From Raja brachyura (lineage: Eukaryota): DNA of 64,000 nt. The position numbers and the translations under genes are program-made. The notes beneath the pieces are model-generated. The model was not told where the DNA came from. It searched no databases and saw only the letters and a program-made list of their open reading frames with translations. The stretch spans positions 28,458,001-28,522,000 of the forward strand of contig OY740796.1 of assembly GCA_963514005.1 (NCBI GenBank), read 5' to 3'. Each line of letters begins with the position of its first letter. The first letter of the stretch is position 1. This document shows positions 3,763 to 63,750 of the stretch, piece by piece.

Positions 3763-4426
3763 AAACTCCCATTCTGGCTTTAATCACTCCGATTTCCCAA
3801 TGGGAGTCTCGTGCTCTTGGAATTTTCTTCCAGAACCTCCTCGCCAAATTGATTTATTCTAGCTTTCTTCACTAGTCTTCTTATCTCGAGCTCAGACTAT
3901 CTGAAACTCTCCCTGGATCTTCCGGCAGTTTTCACCACAAGCCATCCCCAGCAAGTAAATTATTGCATATGCAGCAATACTGCACTTTCAACGCCTTAAC
4001 TGTAAAGGGTTTTGAGTCATCACGTGGATAAAGCATTGCATAAAACCCGCTGAGGATTTGCAGACGTTAATCAGGGCACAAATCTCGGTGATTAGAAGCG
4101 TGCGGACGTCTTAGAATACCGATTTCAGGCACGGTCGACAGATTGCACTCGTCTCTCCTCTCCCTCGTTGTACCCCAGTCTACACCGAGTAGGCTGAGGT
4201 CGGATCAGCTTACAATAGAGCACAGTATTCCACACCTGAGGGGATCCGCCGTCTGTGTGGCTGGAACGCATCTCACGTGAAGGGCGCCCTTACTGAGTTG
4301 GTGAACGGTCGAGCCTCTGGAGGGTGGCGAATGCAGGTCAATTGTTATGCCCCTTTCTTTCCCTCCCCCCAGTAAACTTCCCGGACAGATTTTGGCAGGT
4401 TTAGTCTCCAGCGAGGCAGAGAAGGC

Positions 4427-4620
4427 GGGTGCAGCAGCATCTAAGGAGCGAAGGAGATAGGCGACGTTTCGGGTCGAGACCCTTCTTCAGTCTGAAAAAG
4501 GGTCTCGACCCGAAACGTCGCCTATCCACTTCGCTCCTTAGATGCTGCTGCACCCGCTGAGTTTCTCCAGCCTTTTGTGTAACCCTCGATTCTCCAGCAT
4601 TTGCAGTTACTTCTTTAACA
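4427..4620. mobile_element. Palindromic mini-Penelope (inverted pLTR) with hammerhead-like core
   Basis: Near-perfect inverted repeat centred at 4491; TSD cagagaaggc at 4417-4426 and 4621-4630. Confidence 0.88.
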
Positions 4621-5299
4621 CAGAGAAGGCATCCAGAGGCCAACTTCCGCACTCCCAACTATCCCGCAGGTTTATACCACTTAAGGTTTAAAACAAAAAG
4701 TGTCTCACTAACGTGTTATTGGCGAACTCAAGAGCTTGCTCTTCTGCCAAAGCCCACATGGGATAGAGCTAGAAGCATCAACGATCGCAGTGATCTCTAA
4801 TCTCAAAATGTCCCGAATGGGGCCCACTGTGCCCCTGTGGAGATGCCGCATCCTGATTTATTGTGGACTTCCGTAACAGGAGATTGTTTTTACTTTTCCT
4901 TTCCCTCCGTCGTTTCTCACCCAACTACGTTGACACTTTCTGAAACCCAAACTGAGAAAGCCATTGGTCGCTTTTATGCACCAATTTCTCCGCCCGTCTA
5001 ATAGAGGTCCATCCAACGACTTAAGATCTCAAGTTTGTTTCGACTGAAATAAACTTCCACCGTCTAAAGCAATGTGTATAGGGCAGGTCCAACGCACCAA
5101 CCCAAATGAGCCGTTTTTCGCCGCCCTTTTATGGATTGGGTAGAAAAATCCCACCCCGTGATCTCGATGGGCGGGCAGAGGTCACCCCTTGAGACGACGA
5201 ACCCCGCCGCTAGATTTAACGCGGATAGAGCAACATGCCTAATTGAGTGGATTTTTGCTTTCATAGGAATCTCAAAAAAATCGACCCAAAAAGGTCACA

Positions 5300-7538
5300 G
5301 AGAACTCCCATAATGTGCCAAAAAACTTTTATTAAGATTTTATAAAAGGAATTTGTGTTGCATAAAAAACTTTTATTTAACGAAACATAACAGGAAATAT
5401 AAAAGAAACAACTGCAAAGGAAAATGGAGAGCGAATTTGAACACCACAACACAAGATGAGGACAGAGGCGGGATGAAGACAGAGGCAGGAAAAGGGTACA
5501 AAGAACGGGGTCTGTAATATTAGACATGGCCGCCTGCCCAGAACCCTGTGTGTGCACACAGAGACTCTGCCTGTACCATTACACAAAGCTTTCTTCAGCA
5601 AGGATTCAGCAACTTGCAGCCACAACTAAACAAGCACCATCTCAGGGAGGTGAGTCATCGCATCACAGCGCTTCAGCTTTACGGAGCGGGACCACAGGCT
5701 CTGTCCAACCTTCTTGCGAGGACGAGCATCCCCAGGTCAAGGGTGCCAATGGAATTCAGGGAAACAACACAGGACCTGTCCCCAGGGCAAGGAACGCCGT
5801 CTTCTACACTGTCCTACCGCACATTCCCGGGGTTAGAGGAAAGCTGTCCCCACGTTACAGCTCGCCAGCATCAAGAGTGCACCTTGCAGCACCCACCTAC
5901 AACAGATCTGAAACAGGCGGCGTGTAACCCTGCACCTGCACCCAGCGAATGGGCCTTGGCTTTCAGCACGCCTGCAATCCAGTTCAACACCATAACCAAG
6001 ATCTCTCCTCTGCCCGACGAACGGCCCGCGTGGAAAAGCTTTGTGTAAGGGAGTGGAATGTCTAGAAGCTGTCAGTGATACTTCGAGATGGCGTGTGCGC
6101 GTGCCTGTGTGTGCGCGCGCTCGTGCTCGTTCATGAGATGTGCTGCATTCCTGTAGCTTGCACAAACACAACTTTTCTTCAGGCCTGTCCTCCTGTGCTC
6201 CATCCAGCACTGGGGATGTTGGAGCCCCAACTGAACTCCTGGAAAAATTTATTCACTTTCTAAACATAAGAGAAAAATAGGTCCAGTCCCAACGAGAACG
6301 TTTTTTTAAAAAAAAAATCAACTTTCAGGATCTGGCTGCAGGATTCAAATCAGATGATGTATTTTATTTTAAAAATCAAATCTATGTTTAACTTTTGCAT
6401 AGTCTGTTGATGCTTAATTTTCAGCCTGTTCCTGAAGGGTCGGGTATTAGATATGTGGGGACTGGTAGGGGGCACACGAAAACTTGTTGACCTTGGACCA
6501 GAGATGTTTACTGCAGCCTGACCATGCTACAGTGTAGTCATTTGTCACTCGTGAATGCTTGGAGAGAAAACCAAAAAAAAAACAATTAAACATTTTTTCA
6601 TTGTAATTATTCAATGTTGAAATATTGCCTGAAGTCATCAGGTATAACTAAAATGATTAAACATCTGATTAATGTGAAGTACAGCACACAGGAAGTGGTT
6701 AGATTAACGGAATGCACCAAGCCCCCAAAAGCCCAGTGACTTCCAATATGGCTTCCCTGATTCCCAGAATGCACAGCGAGCTGGCATCAGCAAAACACCT
6801 CCCCCTTCCAAATTGCATTATTATTTAAATCAAATCTCCTTATTACACTTTACCCCCTCTGTTCTTAAAGGCAGCAAATCAGCTGGGACATCGGGAGCTA
6901 AGAACCACATCAACCACAAAGGATACTAGGTTAATTTTAATATTCCAAGGACTAATGGACCCTATTGTTGTGAGAGGGGTCAAGGTGGGGTGAGGGAGGG
7001 GAGGGGGGGAGGGGGGGGTGGGAGTTAACCAAACTTAGCTATGATATCCCCACTCCTCCCTCAGCCCACCCCATGGTCGCTTAGCCTTCTGATGTCTGTT
7101 CCACCAGAAGTCATTGATGCGAGTCTGGAATGGGAACCCAGGTTGGCATTCTCCCTCCTTATCTCAGGCTAGAGGGCATTAGTCATCCTGCCTTGAGATT
7201 GAACACAAGGATTTTGTGGCTCAGTTATTCAGTGGGCAATGTATTTATCCACTGAGCCAATGTCTCAATTGTGATTAACCAAGGGGAAGTTTAAATTTAT
7301 CAAATAGCGCCAGCTCTTAAAAATGTTGATTTTTTTTGTGTGAATGCTGAGGGAATCAGGTAAAAGGTTATTCAGCCACTCTAAGGGGTTGGGGGTCAAT
7401 CTGCAGGTACAGACTTGCATGAAAACAGACCTCCTAAACAACAATATTCACAAATCTGAATGATACTCCCAATGACTCCTTCCCGTCACTCGTTACCTCA
7501 CTAGTTCTACACAGGGTCTGAGCAGCTGCACCATCCTT
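5300..7538 (-). other. PCBP4: PCBP4 3' UTR with candidate AATAAA signals at 6363-6368, 6248-6253, 5372-5377 and 5328-5333
   Basis: tttatt on the plus strand at these positions. The distal signal is followed on the minus strand by a GU/U-rich element (tctctgtgaccttttttgggtcgatttttttg). Confidence 0.6.
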
Positions 7539-7851
7539 TCAATACGGTGAGAACTTCTGTCGCTCAGACTTCTTAACCCCATTGGATGAGGAGATTTTGG
7601 CTGTGTAAGCTGACAGGCTCCCAGAAGGCCCCGAGTTGGCTGCAGACAATGCCAGGAAGGGAACATTTTTCATGCCAAGGAGGCTGGAGATGGGAATGGC
7701 ATAGGGGGCATTCAGCATAGAGGATGGGAGGGCGGAGCTCATCGATGCCAGTGGGGAAGAGGCAGGGTTGGCAGGCTGAGAGAAGGTCATGTTGAGGTCA
7801 ACTGGGGTCGTGATGGAAGCATTCTGGGAGGTGGTTTTAGCCATCTCTAAA
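7539..7851 (-). CDS. PCBP4: PCBP4 terminal coding exon (C-LEMAKTTSQN...AYTAKISSSNGVKKSERQKFSPY*)
   Basis: tctttgcag|T TTA GAG. The long C-terminal tail ending ERQKFSPY is diagnostic of PCBP4 rather than PCBP1/2/3. Confidence 0.95.
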
Positions 7852-9293: not shown

Positions 9294-9690
9294 GTGGTGG
9301 CACAGTGTCGCAGGTGGTAGAGCCACTGCCTCACAGCTCCAGAGACACTGGTTCAATCCTGACCTCGGATGCTGTCTGTCTGGTGTATGAACGTCCACCC
9401 AGTGACTGCGTGGGTTTCCCCCAGGAGATCCGGTTTCCTCCCAGTCCCAAAGACGCGCAGGTTGGTAGATTAATTGGCCACTGTAAATTGCCTCTAGTGT
9501 GTAGGTAAGTGGTAGAATCTAGGTGGGGTGGGTGGGGAGGGGGAGAAGGCGGGGGGGAGGAAGGAGTTGATGGGAATGTGGGGAGAATAAAAAAAATAGG
9601 ATTAATATAGGATTTATGTAAATGGGTGGTTGATGGTTGGCATGGACTTTGTGGGCCAAAGGGCCCATTTCCATGCTGCATCTATGACTG
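9294..9690 (+). mobile_element. HE1/V-SINE (tRNA head, V-domain, CR1-like tail)
   Basis: tggcacagtg..gcag..ggtagag, B-box ggttcaatcct, ctgcgtgggtttc...tccggtttcctccca..ccaaagac core, tail gggccaaagggcc..tttcc. Confidence 0.85.
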
Positions 9691-10176: not shown

Positions 10177-10497
<321 letters not shown>

Positions 10498-16168: not shown

Positions 16169-17698
16169 TAGAAACATTGAAAATAGGTGGAGTAGGCCAT
16201 TTGAGCCTGCACCGCCATTCAATATGATCATGGCTGATCATCCAACTCAGTATCCTGTACCTGCCTTCTCTCCATACCCCCTGATCCCTTTAGCCACAAG
16301 CTCCACATCTAACTCCCTCTTAAATATAGACAATGAAGTGGCCTCAACTACCTTCTGTGGCAGAGAATTCCAGAGATTCACCACTCTCGGTGTGAAAAAT
16401 GTTTTTCTCATCTCGGTCCTAAAAGATTTCCCCCTTATCCTTGAACTGTGACCCCTTGTTCTGGACTTCCCCAACATCGGGAACAATCTTCCTGCATCTA
16501 GCCTGTCCAACCCATTAAGAATTTTGTACGTTTCTATAAGATCCCTCCTCAATCTTCTAAATTCTAGCGAGTACAAGCCGAGTCTATCCAGTCTTTCTTC
16601 ATATGAAAGTCCCGACATCCCAGGAATCAGTCTGGTGAACCTTCGCTGTACTCCCTCTATGGCAAGAATGTCTTTCCTCAGATTTGGAGACCAAAACTGT
16701 ACGCAATACTCCAGGTGTGGTCTCACCAAGACCCTGTACAACTGCAGCAGAATCTCCTTGCTGCTGTACTCAAATCCTTTTGCTATGAATGCTAACATAC
16801 GATTCGCCTTCTTCACTGCCTGCTGCACTTGCATGCCTACTTTCAATGGCTGGTGTACCATGACACCCAGGTCTCGTTGCATCTCCCCTTTTCCTAATCG
16901 GCCACCATTCAGATAATAGTCTACTTTCCTGTTTTTGCCACCAAAGTGGATAACCTCACATTTATCCACATTATACTGCATCTGCCCACTCACCCAGCCT
17001 ATCCAAGTCACCTTGCAGCTTCCTAGCATCCTCCTCACATCTAACACTGCCCCCCAGCTTTGTGTCTGCCAGCCAGTTCCCCACTACCGGTGTTATAGAC
17101 TAACTGGTCTGTAATTCCTTGTTTTCTCTCTCCCTCCCTTTTTAAAAAGTGGGGTTATATTAGCTACCCTGCAATCCTCAGGAACTACTCCAGAATCTAA
17201 AAAGTTTTGAAAAATTATCACTAATGCATCCACTATTTCTAGGGCTACTTCCTTAAGTACGCTGGGATGTAGCCTATCTGGCCCTGGGGATTTATCGGCC
17301 TTTAATCCATTCAATTTATCTAACGCACCACTTCCCGGCTAACCTGGATTTCACTCAGTTCCTCCATCTCATTTGACCCCCGGTCCCCTGCTATTTCCGG
17401 CAGATTATTTTTCCTTAGTGAAGACAGAACCAAAGTAGTTATTCAATTGGTCTGCCATGTCCTTGTTCCCCATGATCAATTCACCCGTTTCTGACTGCAA
17501 GGGACCTACATTTGTTTTAACTAATCTTTTTCTCTTCACATATCTATAAAACCTTTTGCAGTCAGTTTTTATGTTCCCTGCCAATTTCCTTTCATAATCT
17601 ATTTTCCCTTTCCTAATTAAGCCTTTTGTCCTCCTCTGCTGGACTCGGAATTTCTCCCAGTCCTCTGGTAGACTACTTTTTCTGGCTAATTTGTATCC
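16169..17698 (-). mobile_element. HER1/CR1 LINE fragment in PCBP4 intron, lacking the RT core
   Basis: ORF 16247..17047 (KCEVIHFG...HLEYCVQFWSP...RGDL-like) and ORF 17093..17314 (KSPGPD.LHP...NYRPVSL); (tagaaaca)-type tail. Confidence 0.92.
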
Positions 17699-19266: not shown

Positions 19267-19482
<216 letters not shown>

Positions 19483-20559: not shown

Positions 20560-20895
<336 letters not shown>

Positions 20896-24929: not shown

Positions 24930-25600
24930 TTGCATAAAATGAGAAGAGGAATGAAATGTAAAGCCAGAGAGGGAGGGATATAGGTGGAAGGGAAAAGAGG
25001 GGGGTAAAAGGGAAATGAGGGACTGAGGGATGGGAGACGAATGCACAAAGGAAGGGAACGCAGCAGGATAACTGGGGGTTCGAGGATATGGGGGCGCATT
25101 GGGGTGGGGAGCATGGGAAAGAGAGGGATGTTAATTGGGTTATTAGTTGAAATTGGAGAATTCAATGTGCATACCGTTGGGTTGTAAGCTACCCAAGGTG
25201 GAATACGAGGTGCTGTTCCTCCGGTCTGCGTGTGGCCTCAGTCTGGCAATGAAGGACGCCAAGGACAGAAAGATCGGTATGAAAATGGGAGTTAAAATGG
25301 TTGCAACCAGGAGATCCCTCTGCCTTTACATTCCACTCCACTTCTCTCTTTATCTGGCACCCTTTTCACCTATAGCCTTTGTCACTTCACCATTTACCAA
25401 TCAAGAGATCCCTCACATATATCGACCGATCGATCACCTGCCAAGCTTTGTCCCACCTCCACCTCCCTTTTCGACCCCATTCTCCATCAGCCTGAAGAAG
25501 TGTCTTGACCTGAAACCGTGTCTGACCATCTCCTCTACAGATGCTGCCTGACCCGCTGAGTTCCTCCACCACCTTATGTTTAGCTCAAAATTCCAGCAGC
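24930..25600. mobile_element. Penelope remnant: GIY-YIG C-terminus (minus) plus inverted pLTR (plus)
   Basis: tcaatgtgcataccgttgggttgtaagctaccc...gaggtgctgttcctcc, then ctgaagaagtgtcttgacctgaaac...gatgctgcctgacccgctgagttcctcc. Confidence 0.8.
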
Positions 25601-26756
25601 CACAGGTGGCAACCTTTATGCTCAGGCGATTTAAGTTCTTGTCTAGAGACTTCTCAAACGCTGTTGGGGACTCTGCTTATACTTCTATTTCTATTTCTCT
25701 CCCTCTCTCTCTGGCAGTGCATTCCAGATATTCACCACTCTCTCCTAAATATAAGCCCTCTAGTTTTCTTCACCTATTAAAGGGAGGTTTTTCTGCAATT
25801 TTTCCAATTTATGCACCTCATTTTATATATCTTAATCATTATGCCTCTTAATCTCTTCAGGGAAAACATAACTAGCCTCTACACTCTTTAGAAGCAATTT
25901 ACTTGGTAGAAAATATGAATAGTGGGATATCCAAAATATATCTGGGGATTATTGCAGTGAGCAATAAACTTTGAAGGGATGAATGGCCTTTTCTCAATTA
26001 TCTTCCTCATGTTCTCCTGAGCCTGGCATACGCACAATGACTGCAGAGATGTCCAGGGCAACAACCATTGCAACAATTGTCAACTTAGACGATTAGCAAA
26101 TTACCCAAAGTACCTTTCTTGCTTGAAATAACCAGATCATAGAAAAGAGCAAAAAGCACCACCACATTAAGGCAACATTCAGGATTCTATCAACTTTGTG
26201 ATGAGATTTCTTAACTTCCCCATGGTTCCTTAGCCAATTATTATTACATTTTACACATTGATTGTTTTCATAATTCTGAATCTTTTATTATACCTGATAA
26301 GCGTATTCACTGAACTCTTAATCAACGCATATGAGTCCAGCATCAGCAATCTCGGTATTTATACTGCCTAGAATAACAGTCATCTAACAATCCAAACTCA
26401 GCCCTCGGGTTTCAACATAGCCTGAGCGGTTGGTTTAGAGGAATTACACATTGAGAGAACAGATGCAAAGGCATTCTGCCGCTTGATCTCGCTCAGCTGT
26501 CTGGCACATGGCCCAGATGATTATCTTATTTTAACAAGACAAATGACAGGCTGGCCGCTGAGGGTGGGCAAAATTTGGACCCTTCACATTGAAATAAAAT
26601 TTCTGTATTTTCAACACATCAAATGATGAACAAATAGAATATGTGGACAGGAATTCCCCATTTTCTCCAGCCCTCCATCGAGGTTATTAAAGGTGTCAGC
26701 TTTCAGGTAGGACATTAAGTCACAGTTCTTCGTCCCTGATTGAATGTAAAAAAGGG

Positions 26757-27400
26757 ATGAGCGGTGGGGGGGAAACAGGTCGGAGAGTGGGGGAAAACCG
26801 GTTGGAGGGTAAGGAAAAGGGTCGAGCGCGGGGAAGAGAAGGAAGCGGGTCGGGGGGAGGGGGAAGGAAGCGGGTCGGGGAGTGGACGGACGGATGGGGG
26901 GGGGAAGGAGGAGTCAATGGGCGGGGGGACGAGGCGGGAACGGGTCAGGGGTGGGGGGGGAGGAGACGGGACAGGGGAGGAAATTGATTTGGGGGGGGGA
27001 GATCGGGGGCTGACGGATCGGGGGGTAAGGATACGGGACATGGGGAAGGAAATGGATCGGGTCGTGGGGGGGGAAGGAAATGGGTCCGGGGGGGGGGGGG
27101 GGGAACGGGCCGTCGGGTGGGGTGGGAGGAACGGGCCGGGGACGGACGGGGGGATGGATGGAGGGAAAGAAACGGGCCGGAGGAGGGGGGGGGGAGAGAA
27201 AACAGGTCCGGAGGGGGGGTGGAGGAAGGAAATTGATCGGGGGAGGAAATGGGCCGGGGGAGGGGGGAAGGGAAGAGACGGGCCCGGGCGGGATGGATGA
27301 AGAAACGAGGGAGAATATGTAAAGGCGTGAAAATGGGGAATCTGGAGACGTGGAATTTGAGAAGTGGGGAGGAGGCGGGAGTGGAGCGGGGAAGGGACGA
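26757..27400. repeat. G-rich (plus) / C-rich (minus) low-complexity tract at the 5' end of PCBP4 intron 1
   Basis: Dozens of G3-G15 runs; the ORFs here are Gly- or Pro-rich artefacts. Confidence 0.85.
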
Positions 27401-28015
27401 GGAGTGATCAGTTGGCGGGTTTTGGGGCCGAGCGCGGGCAGGATTAGTAACTGCGAGCGCGAGGCCTAGTCCGGGAGCGGCGCCGAGGCGCCTGGAGGCC
27501 GCGTGCGGCCCAGCTCCCCCCCTCCCCCCTCCATGCTCTCTCTCTGAGGCCCGCCCGCGCCCCGACTACACCCCGCGGGACTCAGTACCCGTACCCGGAC
27601 ACGTTCACTCAGCACCATCCCCTCCCCGCCCCGCCGCCATCGCCTTACCCCGCCAACATCTCCGCCGCCGTTGTCCGAATGTGGTTCCTCTCCGACTTCC
27701 TGCTGACGAGAAGCAGCGACAATCGTCCGCCTGTACGACACGCAGCGCACCGCGACCTCCCTCGCCACCGCCCTCGCCCGGCCCGCCCGCCAACTGCACA
27801 CATCTTCCGCCCCATCGTCAACAAAATATCCTCCCCCACTGTCTGATCGCGCAAACACCCCTTCCATTCACCCGTCAAATTCTGCAAAACAACTCCCCAC
27901 CCTTCTCCACTCACCCCACAGTCTGATCGTGCAAACAACTCACCCACAGTCTGATCGCGCAAACCCCTCCCCCTCCTTCCCCCTAAAAATTGAACTTCGG
28001 GCCCGAACGCGTGCA
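27400..28015 (-). promoter_or_regulatory. CpG-island promoter and candidate non-coding exon 1 of PCBP4 (donor gcggg|gtaagg at 27648)
   Basis: Very high GC and CpG density, GC boxes (ccgccc), and a good minus-strand donor about 3 kb upstream of the first coding exon. Confidence 0.7.
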
Positions 28016-28164
28016 TTTTCTAAATCCTTGTGATTTGGGGAAGACGGGCTTTAGATTGCATTCTCTTTTGTACAATGAAAGGGTATTCTCATTCCTTACT
28101 AAATGTACTTTCGGTGAATTTTAAGATTTTCTACTGCATTCGTCAATTCCCCTTTAAACAAACA

Positions 28165-28330
28165 CATGCTGGAGTAACTCAGCGTGTCAGGTAGTATCTC
28201 TGGAGGACATTTCTGGTCCCTTCTTTCCGGGACCCTTCTTCTGCCACCTTCCCATGCCCTTCAGAGATGCTGCCTAAACCACTGAATTACTCTTAACATT
28301 TCATTTTGTAGACCAGCATCTGCAGTTCCA
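28165..28330. mobile_element. Degenerate palindromic mini-Penelope
   Basis: tgctggagtaactcagc...cagagatgctgcctaaaccactgaattactc...ccagcatctgcagttcc. Confidence 0.7.
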
Positions 28331-28653
28331 TGTTTCTCAATTCTCCTTTATGCATCAAATCAAATCTATTTATTATGTTAATTTCCCAAATCTCACGTAC
28401 TCAGATCAAACTTAAAAACACCGTGATGGAGATACGAGAACCTGCAGATGCTGTTATCCCGACCAAAAACAAACTGGATGAACTCAGCAGGTCAAGCTGC
28501 AGCAGGGGAGGTCGACATTTTGGGTGATAGCTGCCAAGGATAAATTCATCATTATATTTAGTGACCAGTCTTGTACACGTGTTAATGGAGTGGATTGTGG
28601 TAAACCCATGACAGCCATAACACTGATTGTACAGTCTAAGCGTAAAATATTCA

Positions 28654-28938: not shown

Positions 28939-29178
28939 TATATTGTACACATCCTCCACTCCTTTCTTAAACTGCCGTTGCATTAATTGCCAACTCTGCT
29001 GGAAGTGTTTACTAGCACTTCCACATCACCTGTATCCACCCAGTTTCAAGACATGTGCCATCCCAGGATTACTTTGTTGAGTTGTTATCTCAATACATTC
29101 CTGGCCCCTACCACCTTTAAACCACTAAGTTCACTTTCAACTTCCCCTCCCGCACCACACACATTCATATCCTTCCTG

Positions 29179-29269
29179 AAGAAGTCTGAAGAAGCGTCTC
29201 GACCCGAAACGTCGCCTAGCTCCTTAGATGCTGCTGCACCCGCTGAGTTTCTCCAGCCTTTTGTGTACC
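29179..29269 (+). mobile_element. 91-bp single-arm Penelope pLTR insert with hammerhead-like core
   Basis: ctgaagaagcgtctcgacccgaaacgtc; 15-bp TSD ttcatatccttcctg at 29164-29178 and 29270-29284. Confidence 0.88.
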
Positions 29270-30772
29270 TTCATATCCTTCCTGCCTGCCCGTCCCAATC
29301 CAGTGACTTTGTTTGGAAGCGTCTGACTTTTAAATTATTCATCCTGGTTTTGACCCAAAACGTCAACTATTCCTTTTCTCCGGAGCTGCTGCCTGACCTG
29401 CTGAGTTATTCCAGCATTTTGTGTCTACCTTTGGTATAAACCAGAATCTGCAGTACCTTCCAACACAAGTGTTTTTGAGACCCGCCCTCTAAAATGGATC
29501 AAAAGACCACACAGCATTGTTTTGACGTGGAGGGGCAAGAGTTCCCGATGTCTTGGTGTCAATATTTAGCTTAACACCTAAAAATAAAGGCTTAAATTTA
29601 AGTGTATTGGAATGGCACAAAAGTAGGACACAAACAATTTTAATGTTTTATGTGTCATTCCTAACTGTCACTGTATGTCATGTTGTCACTTGCGGGCGGA
29701 GCACCAAGGCAAATTCCTTGTCTGCGAATACTTGGCCAATAAACTTATTAATTCATTTCTTTCCAGACCTGGTTTGCACAATTGCACCCCGAGTTAGATT
29801 TAGCTCTTAGGGTTAAAGTAATCAAGGAATCTAGGGAAAAAGCAGGAACGGGATACTGATTTTAGTCCCAATTCATAAACATTCTATGTATGGTTGTTGG
29901 CGGGAAGTTTGGGCAGGTGACAGCAGTTGCTGGGTTAAACAATACTCGGGCAGGTTTAAGTGGTGAGAATAGATGTGGTGGCACATCATTGCAGTACGCC
30001 AAGCCACACCAACTTCAAAAAGATGCAGAGTGAGCCCAGTGCTTGGCGTCAGGCGGTCTGTTCGTCAGTCTCTTCCTCAGGAGGTCACAGATTTATAAAT
30101 TAATTTACTCTTCGTTTATTGTCCAGTCAGACTACAAAGGTGACTTCAACATCCAGGAAGGCAGACGGTGGGGGCAGGTGGGATAATGCAGCAATCAACA
30201 CAGGCACTGCAATATATTCAGCCAAGCCAGTGTCACATTACACTGTTGTTCCAGCCCAGAAGCCCCAGGGCAAAAGACCTTTAATGACGCAAGACCCATC
30301 TCGCCAACTCTACTGCTGCCGTCACTCTCCCAGCCTGTCTCGTTCAGTTATTCTTTCTCTCACCCTTCTCTTTGAAGATTGATGAGCAAACCTCACTGCT
30401 GATAAATGTTGAGATGGGGAGTTTGGCTTCCAATTCTAATGAGCCATAAAACCTGTCTTTTGTGGCTTCTAAATAAAGTTTCAGTCCTGGCCTATCATCA
30501 CTACACTTTGCCCCTTCTCTATTCTACAAATTACAGCTGTGCATTCAGCCACTGAGGTCTCAGAAAGCATGATCTGTGAGCCCAAGGATAGAGAGTGGAC
30601 CACTGAGTAACTAAAGGCCAACTTTTTGATTATTGACCTTAATCCTCTAGGCACCCAAACTTCACTGAAATTAAAAACGATCATAATCTGTTATACATGC
30701 TCGATCTCCTCAGTGAAAATATTCACTTTAGTCACGTCCTAATACCCTAAACTACATCAAATTATCCCAAGC

Positions 30773-32080: not shown

Positions 32081-32465
32081 CTGACTTAAAAGTTACATTG
32101 GGGAAAAAACAGAAAAAAAGTCTTGGATTTAAACAGTATAGGGAATGAAATCTGTGTCTTTGCAACTTGCCCGCAGTAATCAGACGCCATTGCCTAAGAG
32201 CATCACTGCTACTTTAACTGTGGATGGCCACTGAAATTGCCAAACAATCACTTCTATTGACACTTGTCAAGCAATACGATTAAACAATTTAATACAGCCT
32301 ATAATACTTTTAGCTTGAAGTACCAAAAATAAACGTAACTATCAAAGATACATATTTTATTTTAAATCCTGTGGGGGAAAAATAACCTTGTCATTGCAAG
32401 TCTGAAACCCTCCAGCCCCTAATCGGCTTTTCCCCTTTGACACAATCTTGAAACTGAAGAAGTCT

Positions 32466-32993
32466 GACTGAAGAAGGTCCATCTGTCTCCTCAGATCCTG
32501 GTGAACTTCTACCGCTGCACCATCGAGAGCATCCTTACCAACTGCATCACAGTTTGGTATGGCAACTGCTCTGTCTCCGACCAGAAGGCATTGCAGAGGG
32601 TGGTGAAAATTGCCCAACGCATCACCGGCTCCTCGCTCCCCTCCATTGAGTCTGTCCAAAGCAAGCGTTGTCTGCGGAGGGCGCTCAGCATCGCCAAGGA
32701 CCTCTCACCCCAACCATGGACTGTTTACCCTCCTACCATCCGGGAGGCGCTACAGGTCTCTCCGTTGCCGAACCAGCAGGTCCAGGAACAGCTTCTTTCC
32801 GGCGGCTGTCACGCTACTCAACAACGTACCTCGGTGACTGCCAATCACCCCCCCCCCCCCCCCCCGACACTTATTATTATTTATTCAAATCATTTGCTGT
32901 GTCGCTCTTCCAGGGAGATGCTAAATGCATTTCGTTGTCTCTGTACTGTACTCTGACAATGACAATTAAAATTGAATCTGAATCTGAATCTGA
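32466..32993 (+). mobile_element. Rex1/Babar LINE 3' fragment
   Basis: FYRCTIESILTNCITVWYGNCS..LQRVVKIAQRITG; HPNHGLFTLLPSGRRYRSL..SFFP; tail (TGAATC)n. Confidence 0.92.
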
Positions 32994-33139: not shown

Positions 33140-33272
33140 GTCCAGTCTGAAGACCGGTCTTGACCCAAAACGCCACCCGTTCCTTCTCTCCAGAGGTGCT
33201 CCCTGTCCCGATGAGTTACTCCAACATTTTGTGTCTATCTTCGATTTAAACCAGCATCAGCAGTTCTTCTGA
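33140..33272 (+). mobile_element. Penelope pLTR remnant
   Basis: gtctgaagaccggtcttgacccaaaacg...gagttactccaacattttgtgtctatc...ccagcatcagcagttc. Confidence 0.75.
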
Positions 33273-36200: not shown

Positions 36201-38033
36201 AATGAATAAAGCAGAAGCAGGTGGACGATGGAAGATGACCGCAGTAACCTTTGGGCTTATCCTTCAATCGGGCGGCTTAGCCGCATTCTGACAGTACAGC
36301 TGTCACTCGGATTCATTGTTGCATTAAGGGGCCTCTCTGCTCAACTCGCAGTTTTAAAAAGCCTGTGTCACATTTCTCCCAATTGATAGCTGTAAGTAAA
36401 CCTGGGGATGACTGAAAGTTTCAAATTACGGCGGCGACAGATATTTCCCTACCCCCCCCCCCCCCCCCCCCCACCGTCTCTCTCTCTCGCACACAAAGAA
36501 TTGGTCTCCCCAAGCCATCCACAATCTAACAGTCTTCATGCAATCCAGCATGAGGAACACATACAAACACCCAACGGGGTCATTATATAACCTCCACGGC
36601 GCAGCAAATGCTTCTTCGGACAAAGCTGAACAATGAAGATAATGGGATTGGGTGTCAGAAAGAGATAGCGGGAAGGTTTTCTATTTGGGGGGGGGAAGGG
36701 AGGGAGATTCCCAAGTCAAGAAATTGGGAAGTGTTGAAGGCCCCATTTGAGGGAGAGAGCAGTTTTAGGGGTGAGGTTTTGGAACCCACTGGGAACTCCT
36801 GTCCAAGAGCTGTCCTACCTTTCGATCTGGAGCCGTTGCTTTAACGCGCGCTGCCTTTGCAGTGGGTGCCAGCGACTTCACTCACTTCCTGGAATCGGGA
36901 GGTTTCACACAAGCCAGCAGCTCTGAACGCACGGATTCACTCCACCGCACAGTCCTCCTGATATTACAATCACGTCTTTCTCACAGCTACAATTCCGCTA
37001 ACATTAACAAAGAGACACAGAGCTCCTCCCCCCAGCTCACCAAAGAAAAGTGGGCGGTGACAAAAGTTCTTGTCTTTTACTCGCTTTAACCCTTTGGAAG
37101 TCAAAACTAAAAACACAAGAGATGCTTGAATCTAGGCAGCATATGTGGAGGGAATGTATTGATGACTTTTCGACCAGACCCGCTTATTTTCTCCAGCAAT
37201 TTGTTTTTGCTCGGCAGTAAAAACTGACTGGTCAAAGATAGTTAGCAGATTAAATGAATTAATGCACACAACTGTTATAAACAACCGACCACACAAGACA
37301 TTAGATACATAACATTAGATCAAGTTACGAGATGTATTTATTTCTCAAAGTAAGAAAAGGAATCTCTAAATCAAATGAACTACTGACAAATTGACAATGA
37401 AAGGCACCTCGTGAGGGTTATTATCAAGAACCCTTTGGCTCCACTCAAACTCCCCGACCTTCAAACACCGGTAAATATCAAAAAGCAGGAAACGTTCAAC
37501 AGGCCAGGCAGCTTCTGTGGAGAGAGAAAGAGAGTCAACTCTTTAGGTGGTGGCATCTGGACAGTTCTGGCATTTTCTGTATGTTTCCCATATTCAGCAT
37601 CTGCCAGTGTTTGTTTGGATTACCCCTCCCCCCCAGCCTCCCTCACGGCAGTCCCTAGCTTGATCTTCCTCCTAACACAGCGTTTCATCCTTTCTGGTAT
37701 CTCTCTTGCTCTTATTGGTCCCTCAGCTTCACTTACTTTTGCAGGATGTCCGAAGAGACACATTTCCTTCTGGTCTCCATGGAATCTTGCTTTGCTGGTC
37801 TAATATTCACACCAACCACTACGGGGCGACAGTGTAAGGCAAGGCCTGACCTCCTTCAATTAACCCAGGCCTGCTTGCAGGATGGGACAGGTAGAAATGA
37901 CATTGACCCTTAAATTAAGAACCAATGGTCACCACCTTACAATAAGGGGGTGGCCATTTTGAACAGAGACAAAAATATATTTATTCAATTCAGGCACAGA
38001 TTTGCATGAACTCTTGTCCAACTTCATAGGGGC

Positions 38034-50225: not shown

Positions 50226-53074
50226 ACTTATTGGCAGATACTGAAAGACAAGATCAGTCTTTTTGTTTTGATCAAATGTGTTTGATCAAGATCAGACTTT
50301 ACTCAGCCTTCACATACTCCTGACACCCTGATTTTTTTTATGTGCAATTAATTGATGGGATTTTGACAATGCTGACAGATATTGCTCCAATACCCTCAGG
50401 AAGGTGGTTGCAAGCTGCCTGCTTGACCTGCTGCAGTCAAAGTGCCCAGCACGGGGCGCATCACATGGCCAGGAGATGTGATCAGTGCAGGGCAAACTGA
50501 TCTGTTTTAATCCGTACACTGATTTGTACTCTGTATCACTCATCCCAGCTCCGCTAATCCGATGTACGTGTCAGCGGCTCCCTGACGAGGAGCTTTACTG
50601 GAGATTGTGCTCCATTGGGGTTGCGCAGCTAGAACTGCACCAAAAATTATTTTCCATCAGTTCCCAACAAGATTTTGTTGCTGCATCTTTTGTGATTTTT
50701 ATTTTTTGGTATTGCTACCTTGTCCACATCCAACAAGGGGTGCAAAATGGATTTTGTGCTGTAAGGAGTGAACAATCGGCAGGACTTCAGTAGAAATCTG
50801 GGTTGCGTACACAGAGACCCAGTTGTGCTGAACCAGGATTAGCTCTGTGCCAGATGCAGTTGCAGAGCTAAAAGGCTGTAAATGAGATTAGTTTTCATCT
50901 CAATATAATGGCGAGGCAGAGACTTCAGCCAAAATCTGCACTTTCATATTCCCCGTGGAATCAAGCCAGGCTAATGGGATTTCCACATTATGAGCACACA
51001 CACACACAATCATTGGCCCAATATCTAATTCAATACAAAATATTTGAATTGATCAGTAATAAACTGGAGAACCATCAGTACAATAACCCGGTTAACAGGA
51101 GCTAGAATAGATTCAGAAAGTTCTACCTGACTAATCTCGTTAAAATCTGTTACGTGACCAACCTGTTGCGATCCGGGCACAGTGTAGCTGGTTGTCCAAT
51201 AGGTTCTGACAAAGTTCCACGTGGAAGTTGTTGGAATTCAGAGGAAAGGATAATGGCTGCAAAGTAGGAACAAATGGTTACTAGTTGCAACAGTGGAGTC
51301 ACGATATAAACATATGGAGGGGAGGACTTCAGGTCTTGGTGCTATTTCTAATTTGGTTCAATACCCTATTTAACAGAGCAAACAAGTCATGCAGTGACCA
51401 TCTCCAACAAGAGAGCTTCTCACCAGAAGTCCTTATTGACCTGAAAATAAACTGGATCAGTTACGTAGATGGACACAATAGCAGGGCAGAGGTGCGGATT
51501 CTGCAGAAGAACCACCACTCTGACTTAGAAATATATCACTGTTCTTCCTTTGGCACTGGATCATAATCCTTGAACTTCCTGCCTAAAGGAAATACCCTCA
51601 CTAGTAGCAACAGCGCCTCACCTTTGCTTCTCTTACCGCTGATCTCATATCCCAAAAAACTACTAAGAACAAGATTTTAATCTTTTTATAATAAAAAAGT
51701 CCCACCCCACATAATCTTCCCCATCGGTTAAAACCATTTCAGTTCTTACATCATTCTTGATCATGTCCACATGATACCCTATGCAGAATTTGGACATTGC
51801 ATGGCAGAATACGCCCGGAGGTGTTAAATCGTTCCGACTTCTTGCACATTTGAAGATTGAATGCATCCCCCACTCACCTTCCCCCAGACGTCAGACTATA
51901 AGATACAGGAGCAAAATAAGTGGCAGAATAGGCCCTGGTGCTCTGCATGGTTCTATGTATGCTAGGAATTTGAATGCAACCCCCACTCCCCTCACTCAAG
52001 TGCTAAGGTCCTGCCACTGTGGTTTAGAGACATACTCCAGAAATTAGAAGGCAAAATCTGGGTGGATTCCAGTGGGACAACTACACTGTCACTGGTCTGA
52101 ATGATTCTGGTGCACTACCCCATTACCCTTGTATCTGCATTTATTCATAGATCATTGGTCTTTAACAGGTTCCCTGGAACACTCAGTAAAGACTGCAAGT
52201 AGCAAGTTCCAGAGATGATGCAAAATAGATTCCCTTGACATTAAGGCTACATGACTAAATATAATGTCAAGAAATGAGAGGAAAGAGTATAATCAATATG
52301 AATAGGCAAGGGGTGGGGAGAACATCTCCACTGCTGAGATAAAAGTAAATCTGTTGCAATTTTTAGATCAAATCATCCCAGACCCAGCAGTTCCTTAGGG
52401 CAGTGTCTCAGGCCCAACCATCTTCAACTACTTCCATCAATGGCCTTTCTTGTAATATCACTTCTGAAGAGGGCACACCTGCACAATTTTGCTTTCCATT
52501 TAAAATATATTACCAATAACCAAATTCAGCATGCGGCAAGACATGGATAACCTTCAGCCTTGGGATGATAACTGGCAAGTAAGATTTGCCACAAAAGCAC
52601 CAGGTAATGGCCACCTCCACGGTCTAGCCATCTACCCATGATGTTCAATCGTCAGTCCCTCACCATCAACAGCCAAAGTCATCACCAGCTAAACAATTAG
52701 ACGCAGATCTGACAAAGTCAAACTTCTACTTTCTGCTGGAAGAAACAACAACCTCTATTTTAGGTTCTTGCTGTTCCCATCTCTATGCTGCCCAGACCTG
52801 TGGAGAAAGAGCGTGTGAGCGTGTGTATGTATGCACATTGGAAAAACAGAGATATGCTCCACACAATCACACCCAGAGTACAGGAATCAGAATGATAGGG
52901 CATCAGTCTCAATTTCTGTCACTAGCACCCAATAGCTCAAATTCCAAAAACATATTCTGTAATAATTGGATTGTCACTAGTAACGCATAACATGCCACAA
53001 CAGGGAAGTCTTGACAGAAGACAACTTCTGTCAAAAGAAACAAGAGTCTTTTTCAACCGGGATGGAAATATCAA

Positions 53075-55441: not shown

Positions 55442-56108
55442 TGCCAGGTTACTGGGCTAAGACTTGACAAGCCACAGGGACTGTACCCTTTATTAGGGCC
55501 ACAGCCTTGCTGCAATCGCCTTGCTGCCATGCCCTCCAAGCACAATGTTCATCAGACAGCATGAACAGTCAGCACCTGTCCCGCCCTGCTGAGCTTCAAA
55601 AGGCACAGAGACCCGATATTCTCTTTGCCAACAGATGTTTCTGAAGCACTTCAAAACATTTTCCATTCAAGCTAACATCAAATGTTTAGTACAATGGATT
55701 GAACTCAGTCACGGAAGCTCCCATGGGCCAGATCCTCAGCCATATTTTCCATAGGAACTTAGTTCTAAGCTGCTTTCTCTGCAAAACTGCCTCTCCTTCT
55801 GCAGCACAGGCATCGTATTGAGCAGAAACCGCCATTGCACCATTTCCATTGTACTGCCTGAAGGTAACCTAGCACATAATGCAGACTCAGCCCTTGGTCC
55901 AACTGATTCCAGAGCCTTTCTCCCACTTTCTTCCAGACCTGTCATCTTTGCTAAAGGTTCTTCCCATTCCACAGAATTCCAATGGAGCAACACATCCAGC
56001 CAGAATCCATGCCGCAGAAACTCTCAGCAAATGCTGAGACCATGGGGTCAGCCTACATTTATTGAAATGTGCTGATTTTTAACGTCCAGCATACTCCAAG
56101 AAATTACT

Positions 56109-56327
56109 TGTTAAAGAAGGAACTGCAGATGCTGGAGAATCGAGGGTTACACAAAAAGCTGGAGAAACTCAGCGGGTGCAGCAGCATCTAAGGAGTGAAG
56201 GAGATAGGCGACGTTTCGGGTCGAGACCCTTCTTCAGACAGGAGGGTCTCGACCCGAAACGTCGCCTATCTCCTTCACTCCTTAGATGCTGCTGCACCCG
56301 CTGAGTTTCTCCAGCTTTTTGTGTAAC
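56109..56327. mobile_element. Palindromic mini-Penelope with hammerhead-like core
   Basis: ~90-bp near-perfect inverted arms; TSD ccaagaaattact(t) at 56096 and 56328. Confidence 0.9.
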
Positions 56328-57859
56328 CCAAGAAATTACTTCCCAGCTGGAAATGATGGTTTTTGGCAGGATGCGAAGGAGGATAGTGTGCTCCTTCACG
56401 TAGCTGGAAAAGAAAGATTCCACAAGGAAATGTACAGATCTGGAAGCTCCCTGCAGGGAGCTGAACATTATTTCTGTCAACACCATAGGACTAACACTCG
56501 ACCCAATGAGATCTGGCACAGACACCAACATTTACTGGTTCAACATCCCTGCAGCCTTCAAGCCCTGCCCTTTTCTTTTCTTCTCGTTCTTTACTCTGCC
56601 TTCTAGAATGGGTTACTGCAGAGCTCCACATTCCCATCAATTTCAAGGGACAACATGTTTTGTTTTAAATTGCCTTGGGATTTGTAAATGGCTGTGTTCT
56701 GGACACTGCTGTTTGAGACAACCCCAAGTTACGACAGAGAACATAATGGTGCTTTCCCGATTTTGCAGCTTCACAGCTCCGTTTGTTCCACAGCACCGAT
56801 GCCAGCTGTGACTGCAAGTTACCGATAGCAACAGGCCGCTGATTGGCCAACACGTTTACATAGGACAGCAGTGTTCAATGCACCAGTTGCATCGCAGTTT
56901 TCAAAGATGAATAGAACAGCTTGTCTGCCTTTCTAATGCAGTCCCTCGGGATAGAGGATGATTTGCTTCCACTAAAAATTAAGAGCAATGTGGCTGATGA
57001 AGCCAGTAGGAAATCACGGACTATTACACAGGGAAGGTTCTCTACAGGGCAAGTGGATAGATGAAGAACTAGCATCCTCCTTCTCATTTTACACAAGGTG
57101 CCTATGCATTTCACAATTCACAAACGAGGTTCTCAATACCTCCTTCATTCCCACCATCTCCTGGACCAGAGATTCTAGTAGACACTGGGAATGTTTCACA
57201 TTTTCTTCTCCCCAAAGGAAGCTTTGAGCACCTCCTTGAATAGTTTCTCCTGTTCACCTGATAACCTCTGCCAGTGGCATAGCTGTGAATAGAGCTAGTA
57301 TTTCAGGAGCCTGGTGTTCGGCAAGCCGAGGTAACTTGGCCCTCAACCTGTAATGTTGGCTGGGAGTTGGTTAATTTGTGCTGCCAGCAAAATTGGAATA
57401 TTGTACAGAGAAAACACTAGCATTATCTCTCCAGTCCTTTGAAATAGTCCAGTTCTCAGAAAACTACCGTTGGGGACAGAAATTGCTGCCGCCCTGTAAA
57501 CCATGTGCTCTGTACCAGGTCTGGTTTTGATCTTCAGCTATTTTGTCCCTCCCCCTTCAGTCACCTTAAAGAATGTACTGGCACATTAAACGTGGCCATA
57601 CATTTCATCGTCAAATCTGCTTTTGCAGAGGTGGCTGCTTCTTCCATATCTCACAGAGGACCTTTATTGTAGCAGATGAAAGACAGAAAGGTTCTTGGAG
57701 GACAAAACATCTTGTACCAACCAGTCTTAAAAACAGCCTGAGGCACTTTGTCAGATCAAAGTGTCTGTAGTTGACAAAAGAAAGGAAAACTGAAGCTGGA
57801 CGAGAAATAAAGATGATACGGGTCACCTTTACGGCTTCCTCTGTTGGTTAAATTCTCAC

Positions 57860-59371: not shown

Positions 59372-60169
59372 GTCCCAGAGCACATTGATGCATTTGGATG
59401 TCAGAGAAATGTACTAGTCCAGAAAATGCTAGAATTCCAACACCTTCTACATAAGCTTCCAACACTCAAGAAATATGCATTATAGCAGAACTACCTGTAT
59501 ATAGAAACCAACACTAGTCCAACAATCCCCAATTCAACTTCCCTCTTCCCAAAACGTCAACTCTGGCCATTAAACAGATAACAGACAACAATACAGCACA
59601 GGAAAAGGCCCATTGGCCCACAATGAACAGAATGCCTGCATATCCATGTGCAATCTAAATGCTTCTTACATGCCACTATCGTAACTGCCTCCCACACCAC
59701 CCTGGCATTGCGTTCCAAGCACTCACCAATCTCAGGGTAAGAAGAAAAAAACGTGCCCAGCGCATGTCCTTGAAACTGCTTCCCTCTCATCTTAAAGCCA
59801 TGCCCTCCAGTCCTTGACATTTCCATCCTGAGAAAAGAGACCACTACACTTTCTTCTGTTTTTTTGCTACCTAGTCTCCAGATCCCAAACATTTAAATGA
59901 ACATGTTACTTCATCACACCAGCACATGGTTAACCAGAGGGAAATGTACAGTAGAGACCCCAGGTAGACAGTACTACGAATGCTACTTTTCTTAATATCT
60001 ATTAATGATTTGGAAGTATACAATTTCAAAATGCCAGAACTTAGGGCAGAGTGAACTAGAGACAGACAGATACATTGATGAAATTTAATGCTTTGGGAGG
60101 AAGAACATGAAATGCAAACTAGAGGACGTCTTTAAAAAGGTCACAAGAGCAGAGCTATCATCGCATGCA

Positions 60170-60630
60170 TGTTTAAGAAAAAACAGCAGATGCTGGAAAA
60201 TTCAAAGGTGGACAAAAATTGCTGGAGAAACTCAGCGAGTGAGGCAGCATCAATGGAGAGAAAGAATAGGCGATGTTTCGGGTTGAGACCCTTCTTCAGA
60301 CTGATGTCGGGATGGGGGAGACGGGAAAAAGAGAGGAAGAGGCGGCGATAGTAGGCTTTGTGGGAGAGTTGGGAAGGCAGAGGGGAAGGAGGGAGAAAGT
60401 AAGGGCTATCTAAAATTATAGAAGTCAATGTTCATACCGTTGGGGAGTAAACGGCCAAAGCGAAATACGAGGTGCTGTTACTCCAATTTGCACTGGGCCT
60501 CACTCTGGCAATGGAGGAGTCCTGCACCCCGCTGACATCAGTCTGAAGAAGGGTCTCGACCCGAAACGTCATCTATTCCTTCTCTCCATAGATGCTGCCT
60601 CACTCGCTGAGTTTATCCAGCATTTTCTGT
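60170..60630. mobile_element. 5'-truncated Penelope insertion with inverted pLTR and intact hammerhead-like cores
   Basis: Minus-strand pLTR plus GIY-YIG tail 60170-60520, then inverted pLTR 60521-60630 (ctgaagaagggtctcgacccgaaacgtc); 18-bp flanking repeat ctatcatcgcatgcatgt at 60155 and 60631. Confidence 0.9.
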
Positions 60631-60649
60631 CTATCATCGCATGCATGTA

Positions 60650-62490
60650 CATCGCACATTGAATGTGGCCGGGCAGGTTGAGAAAATGGGCGTAATAAAG
60701 TATGCGGAATCCTGCACTTTATAAATCAAGCCAGTGAGCAAGGAAATCATGGCAACATTTTATAAAACGCCAGTTTGGCACAACCAGAGTAGAGTGCCCA
60801 GTTCCTGACACTAGATATTTGGAAAGATTTAAAGTCTTTCAAGACTGCGCAGAAGAGATTTACTAAATAGATTACAAGGATGAGAGATTTTGGATTGTCT
60901 GGAGGTGGAATTATTGACAGTAGAGCAGGTAAGGTGGCTGACATATGTAGAAAATAGAACAGACAAGAACAGTGGGAGGAGCAGAAACATGAGGACCGAC
61001 AGGCTTAATTGCATTAGTTTTAATACAAGTAGCCTCACTGGCATGATTGATAGGCCGAGTGTGTGGATGAGCACACGGGATTATGATATTGATGCAATCA
61101 TTGGAACATGATTGATGGATGGGCAAGAATAGCAGCTCGATGTGCCAGGATGTAAAAGTTTCAGATGTGACAGAGAGGTTGAAAAAGAGGGGGTGGTGTG
61201 GAAGTACTGCTCTGGCAATGAGGTTATTTGGGTAAAATAAATAAGAAAAGGCTGGTCAGTATGTGGGGCTATGCTATAGACCTCTCAAAAGTCCATAGGA
61301 ATTGGAAGAGACTCGTAGGCAGATCATAGCAGGGCTATAGAAGTAGTGATTTTAAACTTTTCAAACATTGACGAGGGTAACTTCAGTACCACGGACTTGG
61401 ATGGGGATGCATTCAAGAGAGTTTTTTCCTGAATCAATATGTAGAGTGTCCTATTAGGAAGGGGGCTTGACCTCATCTAGGACAGGCAAGTGGTGGAAGG
61501 AATTGCCGAGGAACACTTTGAGAACAGTACCATAGAGGTTGGAGATTAGAGGTTGTAATGGAAAAAGATAAAGCAAGTCCTTGAGTTCAGTCCCGGTTCA
61601 GTGCAGTGGACATCTCCTATGCTTGCCTTCATAGGGCAAGGCATTAGGTGCAATAGTTGGGACGTTATGTTGCAGCTGTACAAAACATTGCTTAAACTGC
61701 ATTTGGAATATTGTGCACAATTCTGGTCAACACACTACAGAAATGATGTGTAAATAATAGAGAGAGTTCAGTGGATGATAGCTGGAATGAAGGGTTGTAA
61801 TTATAAGGAGAGATTGGACAGGCTAGGTTTATTCTCACCGAAATGCAAGAGCTAAGGGACAATCATATATAAAAGTTTAGATTAGGAGCAGCACAGTGGT
61901 GCATCAGTAGAGTTACTGACTTACAGTGCCAGAGACCCGGGTTTGATCCTAACCACTGCTGCTGTATGTATGGAGTTTGCACATCCTCCGTGACTGTGTG
62001 GTTTTTCTCCAAGTGCTCTGGTTTCCTCCCACATTCCAAAGATGTCCAGGTTTGTAGGACAATTGTTTTTTTGTAAATTGTCCCTAGAGTGTAGAATAAA
62101 ACTAGTGTATGAATAATTAATGATAGTATGGACTCAGTGGGCTGAAGGACCTGTTTGCACTCTATGCCTAAACTAAACTAAACATGATGAGGGCCATAGA
62201 AAGGGTAAATATTCAGCCTTTTTCTTAGGGCAGGGAATGCTAGAACTATGGGGAACAGATTTAAGGGAGGAGATTGGAGGGGCAAGATTTCTCCAACACA
62301 GCAGGTGATGAATATCTGCCAGAGGAGGGGGTGGAGGTTTACAATGTTTAAACAATGTTTAATTACAATGTTTAAAAGGCATTTGGAAAGGAACTTGAAA
62401 AGGAAAGGTGTAAAGGCATGTGGGCCAAATGTAATTAGCATTGATTAGGCATCAGAGGCAGGGAAGGGTGGCTGTTTCTGTGCTGTACAT
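60650..62490 (+). mobile_element. Mosaic of old CR1 fragments, with an HE1 SINE nested at 61885-62182
   Basis: Degenerate endonuclease (YDIDAIIGT-W) and HLEYCAQFW-like segments; SINE head gcagcacagtggtgcatcagtagag and tail ctaaactaaac. Confidence 0.7.
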
Positions 62491-62496
62491 TTCCAG

Positions 62497-62699
62497 TGTA
62501 GGAAAGAACTGCAAATGCTGGTTTAATTCGAAGATAGACAAAATGCTGGAGTAACACAGCGGGACAGGCAGCATCTCAGGAGCGAAGGAATGGGTGATGT
62601 TTCGTGTCTGAAGAAGGGTCTCGACCCGAAACGTCACCCTTTCCTTCTCTCCAGAGATGCTGCTTGTCCCGCTGAGTTACTCCAACATTTTGTGTCTAC
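62497..62699. mobile_element. Palindromic mini-Penelope with hammerhead-like core
   Basis: ctgaagaagggtctcgacccgaaacgtc at 62608; 14-bp TSD ctgtacatttccag at 62483-62496 and 62700-62713. Confidence 0.9.
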
Positions 62700-63750
62700 C
62701 TGTACATTTCCAGGCTTGTTCAGGGAAGAGGGAGGATTGAAGAGATCTGATGGGATATTAAAGTACCCGGACATAATAGAGTTAAAAAGCGTTTCCATTG
62801 GTAGAGTGAAAAAAGTGTTTACATTTGTGGAGGAGCCAATACCCAGAAGACAGAAGAAAGGAATTGGCCAAAGCACCCGAGGGACACCAAGCTTTTTTAA
62901 AAACAAGCACAGCAAGTGGTGAGAACATGGAATGCACTGCAGGAGTGGCAGAAATAAACAACTTAGCTTTCAGATGCTTCCAGCTCACTTCTGAAAGGAA
63001 GTAGTTTCCACGACAGTGCGGAGAGTGAGTGGTGGGACTGGATTTTTTGAGATAAACCAGTAAGGTCTTATGGGCCAAAGAGCCTCCTCCTGTACTGTAA
63101 CCATGCTGTGATTGTGAACTGTGGGGTATGGTACCTGGACCTTGCAGTGAACTGTAAGGCACAGACCATAACTCCACACTCTGTCGCTTGCCTTAAGTGT
63201 GGCTTCACTTACTGCCTGCTCCCATTTGTCCGTTGGAGATCTGGACAGAAATTGCTCTGTCAATGTCCAGTCGCTATCTGTAGGACAGATCCACCCACAT
63301 TGCCTCACCCTCCAGGCAACAAACTAGCCTGCAGAAGTTATGAATGCAAAGCCTTGTTGTGAGACACAGGAGCTTGGCGCCCTCGTGACCTGCTTGTTTC
63401 TGCAGGCAGCCAGGGCACACAGTGGCCCATTGAACAGGCGATGATGCATTGCTGGTAATTACAAGCGACTTCTTCACATTCCTCAATCCCACACATCCTA
63501 TCCCAAATATGCTGACCTTCAGTAATTGGCTGCCGCCTCCATCGTACAGCAGCCAAGAACCTCTGGCTAGGAGGAGGCTTACAGAAAACTAATGTCACTC
63601 ACGCTCAAAGGTTTTAGCCACTAAAATGTCAAGCATCATTTCTGGCTGAAGACATTTTTTTTTTAAATATAAGCAGGCCTTTGTTCTGGTGCCTCTCCCT
63701 CTGTTCATGCCACCACACACGGGAAGGCAGCGCTCAACAATAGTAGCTCA

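Follow-up and report, generated by a model that had tools for sequence, protein, structure and literature searches.

A 64,000-nucleotide stretch of the Raja brachyura genome (assembly GCA_963514005.1, contig OY740796.1, positions 28,458,001 to 28,522,000 of the forward strand; hereafter the window) was analysed for a set of short, mostly palindromic inserts that carry minimal hammerhead-ribozyme cores. By sequence comparison, these inserts are pieces of the pseudo-long terminal repeat (pLTR) end of an abundant Neptune-type Penelope element of the same genome, which bears an open reading frame (ORF). The pieces, or stumps, were in our judgement quite probably left by a reverse transcriptase (RT) that primed on an uncut RNA, at its first tail, and ran off at the probably capped 5' end of that RNA, with palindromes arising from priming on two strands. 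Their reading as a new kind of mobile element does not hold up; the shared start point and the strict one-tail pattern likely record the copying mode of a little-understood class. Of Penelope-like elements (PLEs), one has been studied in vitro, and the present family gives sharp, countable predictions for their integration, for the start of their RNA and for hammerhead cutting in vivo: an RNA start at positions -3 to -1, a single priming site for each target strand and, at +29, rare cleavage (positions counted on one natural array unit, with the T of TCTGAAG as 0).

The Penelope origin proposed in the first-pass annotation was borne out, as the inserts correspond in sequence to the pLTR end, a minimal hammerhead with a 36-nt tail, of a 3,965-bp Penelope element, the young arms at 56109 and 4427 nearly letter for letter. 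A protein fragment at window positions 3105-3776, with about 100,000 first-look candidates across the genome, was traced to long RT-bearing copies and to full-length units, some of them repeated in tandem on contig C18 with a period of 3,965 bp. The layout of the parent is 3' untranslated region (UTR), pyrimidine tract, CAG, hammerhead, about 65 nt, the 36-nt tail, 30 nt and ATG. Its RT (Pfam RVT_1, E 1.8e-4) and the endonuclease of the window remnant at 2812-3779 (GIY-YIG, E 0.014) both scored below the Pfam cutoff. RT and, at the C terminus, GIY-YIG occur in one unit, as in endonuclease-containing (EN+) PLEs, and the copies read carry frameshifts; tandem or partial-tandem pLTRs, the inverted 5' arm and a tail of 30-40 bp are further EN+ traits that the family shows. 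The window ORF at 3070-3534 contains a C-x4-C-x2-C linker, and a CX2-5CxxC linker between RT and endonuclease is the mark of Neptune and Nematis elements (PMC8557442). The parent is provisionally assigned to the Neptune type by this linker motif. Exact genome-wide matches numbered 37,886 for the 3' 35-mer and 29,279 for the hammerhead core, with 9,555 for the core with the young upstream flank and 573 for the core with the older flank. A donor-like CAAG/GTATG was found to overlap the ATG of the ORF (locus L173, 4407-4420; full-length copies L114-L142), and among 30 ORF-start copies, four have their first base 5-13 nt ahead of this site, possibly marking a second RNA start.

Arm ends, palindromes and their origin

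Arm ends were mapped in the first 100 listed matches of the 3' 35-mer, from the first 4.2 Mb of contig C1, which gave 98 distinct contexts. Fifty arms started at -4 to +1, 15 at +3 to +52, eight at -6 to -136 and 25 further upstream, the loss per base being 0.086 at the edge, 0.0027 downstream of it and 0.0018 upstream; of the 127 arms in a wider set freed of duplicates, 54 began at the edge. Genome-wide, 7,033 of the 29,279 exact core matches carry a base other than A at -2 and hence break at -1, and the base before this start was G in 4,033 cases versus C or T in 3,000. Before starts at -2, a hand count of the first 100 of 4,573 listed matches gave G, A and T in 52, 38 and 10 cases, respectively. 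One or two untemplated G residues were found between the target-site duplication (TSD) and the element in solo copies (L242/L257, L249, L262, L266 and L298), and an extra G at a sharp 5' edge agrees with run-off at a capped RNA start. The edge is shared by ORF-bearing copies (L116, L118, L120 and L122 of 30, and also L186 and L240). The last two are partial tandems, running from the 5' edge through the tail to about 100 nt into the ORF start, followed by a second pLTR. The edge sits on YYANWYY (CCAGTCT or TCAGTCT), the initiator consensus. The 3' ends of the 98 arms fell at +0 to +3 (59 arms) and at +31 to +39 (35 arms) past the anchor, with four elsewhere, and the two groups lie 36 nt apart, which corresponds to the known Penelope tail. 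It had been foreseen that copies might share neither a fixed centre nor fixed ends; the centres do vary, but the ends are fixed, and the inserts are therefore not random truncations of full-length Penelope.

A TSD of at least 8 nt was present in 33 of 47 candidate head-to-head pairs (8-20 nt, mostly 12-17), and exactly one arm was tailed in all 33 of these palindromes (p 1e-10), seven of which came from searches seeded by a tailed window unit. Among loci picked without regard to the tail the count was 19 of 19, and by eye the seven window palindromes agree. The centres differ from copy to copy, CAG-T-CTG being the favoured one; one tail per palindrome together with variable centres points to insertion as the likely moment of palindrome formation. 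Inverted pLTRs with a tail on one side have been described before (PMC3846280, PMC8557442), and neither a quantified sharp 5' edge nor a quantified one-tail pattern was found in the Penelope literature searched. Two loci depart from the common form. At L209 (1450-1760; contig C1, 1532.4-1532.8 kb), two long copies, one tailed and the other not, are joined tail to tail, and not head to head as is usual, with a 20-nt piece between them, and at L196 (1500-1875) a palindromic insert holds about 150 nt of unrelated sequence between its arms, within a 15-nt TSD.

In the proposed mechanism, the RT would prime at the first tail of uncut RNA and the cDNA would run off the probably capped 5' end of that RNA at the ribozyme edge, which would be the transcription start. 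The endonuclease would nick both target strands about 14 nt apart, one nick priming at the tail-end site and the other at a site 36 nt upstream, and the two cDNAs would join at their far ends by microhomology, often via the CAG-T-CTG mini-palindrome. Stumps, being without RNA downstream of the tail, are probably dead ends, and the ribozyme is probably a weak cutter working only as a dimer, whose cleavage would be dispensable for insertion. In vitro, an Anolis PLE nicks both strands and extends them, its copying begins at two internal sites bounding the tail, and cleavage by the ribozyme is not required (PMC11167929); from this two-site, two-strand priming and the one-tail rule we infer one priming site per strand. 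A wider reading, in which the tens of thousands of stumps are a fossil record of a capped start at helix I of the hammerhead, of a dimeric enzyme that as a rule primes each strand at a different RNA site and of low-rate cutting in vivo with the ends sometimes A-tailed and rejoined, is conceivable but rather doubtful.

Several points weigh against run-off at a capped start with two-strand priming. The 98-arm sample comes from one contig's first 4.2 Mb and includes four local duplicates, the G excess reflects in part microhomology and element-templated filler (microhomology at about eight of 30 G-class loci), and about nine of 25 non-inverted edge arms have no TSD close by. The Anolis element belongs to the Poseidon clade, unlike the parent described here, and head-to-head palindromes were attributed by Arkhipova et al. 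2013 to self-priming on an antisense template. In addition, the edge is a good splice acceptor (pyrimidine tract plus CAG) in every subfamily and coincides with the ribozyme position at which the intron of Drosophila virilis Penelope ends (PMC4209133). The edge could then have arisen by splicing or processing of the RNA, a very short or variable first exon being joined at CAG/TCTG and the RT stopping at or just past this junction, and the donor-like site 30 nt past the tail, with four starts close before it, would suit such a case; but the junction predicted from that site has one genome match, no common leader lies upstream of the edge copies and TSDs often directly adjoin the edge, which leaves this explanation unlikely. 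Splicing from the donor-like site to the CAG, whether by ORF removal or as an exon circle, was unsupported, with one match genome-wide. Even less probable is ordinary 5' truncation with an RT pause or favoured microhomology at the ribozyme edge on long read-through RNAs: many edge junctions do use microhomology, the CAG-T-CTG palindrome included, but the loss per base jumps 30-50-fold over 6 nt, solo copies with untemplated G lack microhomology and no strong fold exists at the edge (z 0.13).

The first-pass annotation had also suggested that the short units may be a parasite resembling retrozymes or short interspersed nuclear elements (SINEs) and mobilised in trans by Penelope RT; such a self-propagating, non-autonomous family would be transcribed on its own. 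Fixed ends and a very high copy number would agree with this, pLTRs are able to mobilise other sequence in cis (PMC3846280), and animal retrozymes derive from pLTRs (bioRxiv 10.64898/2026.07.22.740005). However, a comparison of 95 positions in 225 arms revealed the same variants at similar rates in 66 long, 124 edge and 31 TCCTG arms; they are common to the ORF-bearing parent, and no variant diagnostic of short copies, as expected of a SINE-like lineage of its own, was found among the 225. Palindrome centres vary, the units at the sampled loci are dispersed monomers or inverted pairs, and tandem arrays with one ribozyme per unit, typical of retrozymes, were absent from the window. Nor are the units bounded by the cleavage site as retrozymes are, since 0 of 98 and 3 of 127 arms start there, and the stumps lack the RNA 3' of the priming sites that the Anolis protein requires (PMC11167929). 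Such a family is hard to credit. A separate subfamily with a fixed TCCTG leader was also considered and rejected: its 30 exact matches compare with 25-30 expected by chance from 3,000 pyrimidine-preceded edge copies (a rough hand estimate), private variants are absent, the leader is often supplied by the target sequence and the group arose from query bias.

The hammerhead core and its possible cleavage

The motif CTGAAGA-A-GGGT-CTCG-ACCC-GAAAC-GTC is preserved in full, on a single strand, in four of the five inserts, and the only intact cores in the window are those marked in Table 1. A core on each strand of the palindromes had been claimed, but in each of the four palindromes with TSDs the core is intact on one strand only, the partner arm being mutated or shortened. 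The boxes and helix layout support the predicted minimal type I hammerhead that would need a dimer to cut: core boxes, an extra base after A9, the G10.1-C11.1 pair and a palindromic 15.2-16.2 are all present. The extra A after A9 had been given as a caveat, but it is no defect, since PLE minimal hammerheads are described as having a base at this place, between 9 and 10.1, among their conserved traits (PMC4209133). The presence of several age subfamilies was likewise supported, and the majority core bases are constant across subfamily groups with differing downstream sequence (among copies filtered at no more than 8 of 29 mismatches). Rfam returned no hammerhead match at E ≤ 5, the motif being recognised by its boxes and not by a curated model, and monomer folds of core and unit were no better than shuffles (z 0.13 to -1.06). 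The long hairpin expected from a transcribed palindrome was supported by prediction (-188 kcal/mol), and in such a transcript the core would be locked in the hairpin; an Rfam search of the hairpins gave only microRNA-precursor matches, below the gathering score.

Genome-wide, 108 starts were counted at the cut site, +29, versus 20 at +28 and 52 at +30. When the same purine-purine flank filter was applied to control positions, 82 starts were counted at +32 and 78 at +36, so that the excess at +29 is only about 1.3-fold and a clear start peak at the cut site was rejected. The RNA templates were mostly uncut. Four insertions with different flanks (L337-L340) carry AAA exactly at the predicted cleavage bond, with none at the two neighbouring bonds; in L313 the AAA is at the cut bond with three bases lost, and a run of at least three A precedes five of the 25 starts at +29 that were inspected (six with L324). 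These copies hint at rare cleavage, A-tailing and rejoining, although the four AAA copies may descend from one source copy. Three tandem 61-nt units (L319-L321; contig C2, 55272483-55272640) each have the predicted cut site as their first position and could stem from a small circle copied in rolling fashion or from a series of template jumps.

Inserts and other repeats of the window

The five inserts described with their own direct repeats were all recovered (Table 1). In 1,500 random position pairs, examined with the same search geometry and without shuffling, a repeat of at least 10 nt arose by chance in 0.33% and of at least 14 nt in 0.07%. Four of the inserts are palindromic as had been stated, and the fifth, 29179-29269, is a single arm with G>C in helix II. 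Their description as ORF-less fails for 60170-60630, whose long arm takes in about 350 nt of 3' UTR and endonuclease ORF end, with 73% identity to window 2812-3127. The older copies reported near 25.5, 28.2, 29.4, 33.1, 37.2, 41.4, 44.4 and 45.2 kb showed arm homology of 71-85% identity; no TSD longer than 7 nt was found at ten further places (these eight copies, 47.9 kb and the 2.8 kb remnant). A stuttered stub of the element's first bases, with the rest of the arm gone, occurs at 32454-32480.

Table 1. Penelope-derived features of the window (positions in window coordinates; ".", no single strand).
Feature	Position	Strand	Remarks
Left TSD of insert 4427-4620	4417-4426	+	10 nt; right copy 4621-4630
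Head-to-head palindromic insert	4427-4620	.	Centre, small CAG-T-CTG palindrome; minus arm: intact core at 4490, no tail, short 3' end; plus arm: tailed, G8>A (core copy 4491+)
Left TSD of insert 29179-29269	29164-29178	+	15 nt; right copy 29270-29284
Solo arm without tail	29179-29269	+	Helix II mismatch, short internal deletion, 6-nt filler copying the element's first bases
Left TSD of insert 56110-56327	56096-56109	+	14 nt; right copy 56328-56341
Young palindromic insert	56110-56327	.	Minus arm: tailed, intact core at 56237, begins at -1; plus arm (56244+): no tail, no CUGA box
Left TSD of insert 60170-60630	60155-60172	+	18 nt; right copy 60631-60648
5'-truncated element with inverted pLTR arm	60170-60630	.	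Minus strand: truncated element (tail, pLTR, 3' UTR, end of GIY-YIG ORF), ACGU palindrome broken at 60299-; inverted plus-strand pLTR arm: no tail, intact core at 60543
Left TSD of insert 62497-62699	62483-62496	+	14 nt; right copy 62700-62713
Palindromic insert, older subfamily	62497-62699	.	Minus arm (62604-): tailed, cut off inside core; plus arm: no tail, intact core at 62608, begins at -1
Decayed 3' part of ORF-bearing Penelope element	2812-3779	-	Linker, GIY-YIG, 3' UTR, pLTR with intact core at 2918
Old arm	25485-25585	+	ORF-end fragment nearby at 25149-25277
Old palindrome	28150-28340	.	Right arm tailed; core lost
Old solo arm, tailed	29346-29467	+	
Old solo arm, tailed	33140-33270	+	Begins near -4
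Old remnant	37134-37204	.	
Old palindrome	41400-41580	.	Left arm tailed; centre within core
Old palindrome	44425-44590	.	Left arm tailed
Old arm, tailed	45175-45310	-	Begins at -1; ORF-end fragment at 45449-45566

Other repeats were also observed. The 3' fragments of a long interspersed nuclear element, 77-93% alike and presumably of CR1/L2-like type, lie at 400-923, 16195-17083, 42844-43368 and 48462-50227, with no Pfam match for 16247-17080. A second dispersed, SINE-like family of short repeats, which we take to be HE1-like, occurs at 9326, 20107, 28696, 30804, 35452, 38061 and 61916. A G+C-rich island at 26700-28000 (G+C 56% across 26-28 kb) contains G-rich tandem repeats and may be a promoter region.

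Comparison with known systems

The parent resembles EN+ Neptune-type Penelope elements in its RT, C-x4-C-x2-C linker and GIY-YIG, as well as in its tandem arrays, inverted arm, 36-nt one-ended tail and TSDs of 8-20 nt; an inverted 5'-truncated pLTR, a one-sided tail of 30-40 bp and solo pLTRs are known for that type (PMC8557442; PMC3846280). Unlike the Neptune type as described in those texts, about half of the arms here consist of the pLTR alone and share a sharp 5' edge, and exactly one arm is tailed in 33 of 33 palindromes. The ribozyme shares with PLE minimal hammerheads (PMC4209133) the CUGAnGA and GAAA boxes, the extra base at 9/10.1, the G10.1-C11.1 pair, the palindromic 15.2-16.2 and the occurrence of opposite-strand pairs 100-700 bp apart, and differs in a helix I of 2 bp, the length also found in D. 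virilis, and a helix II of 4 bp. The Anolis Poseidon element PAc (Frangieh et al. 2024, PMC11167929) is similar in its two internal priming sites bounding the tail, the extension of both strands and the use of uncut RNA; it differs in clade and in its ORF, which starts inside the ribozyme, the ATG of the present element lying about 32 nt past the tail. Animal non-LTR retrozymes (bioRxiv 10.64898/2026.07.22.740005) are similarly non-coding, hammerhead-bearing and related to pLTRs, and are described as tandem repeats with a ribozyme in each unit. In contrast, the inserts reported here are monomers or inverted pairs with TSDs, and their sequence is the same as that of a coding parent.

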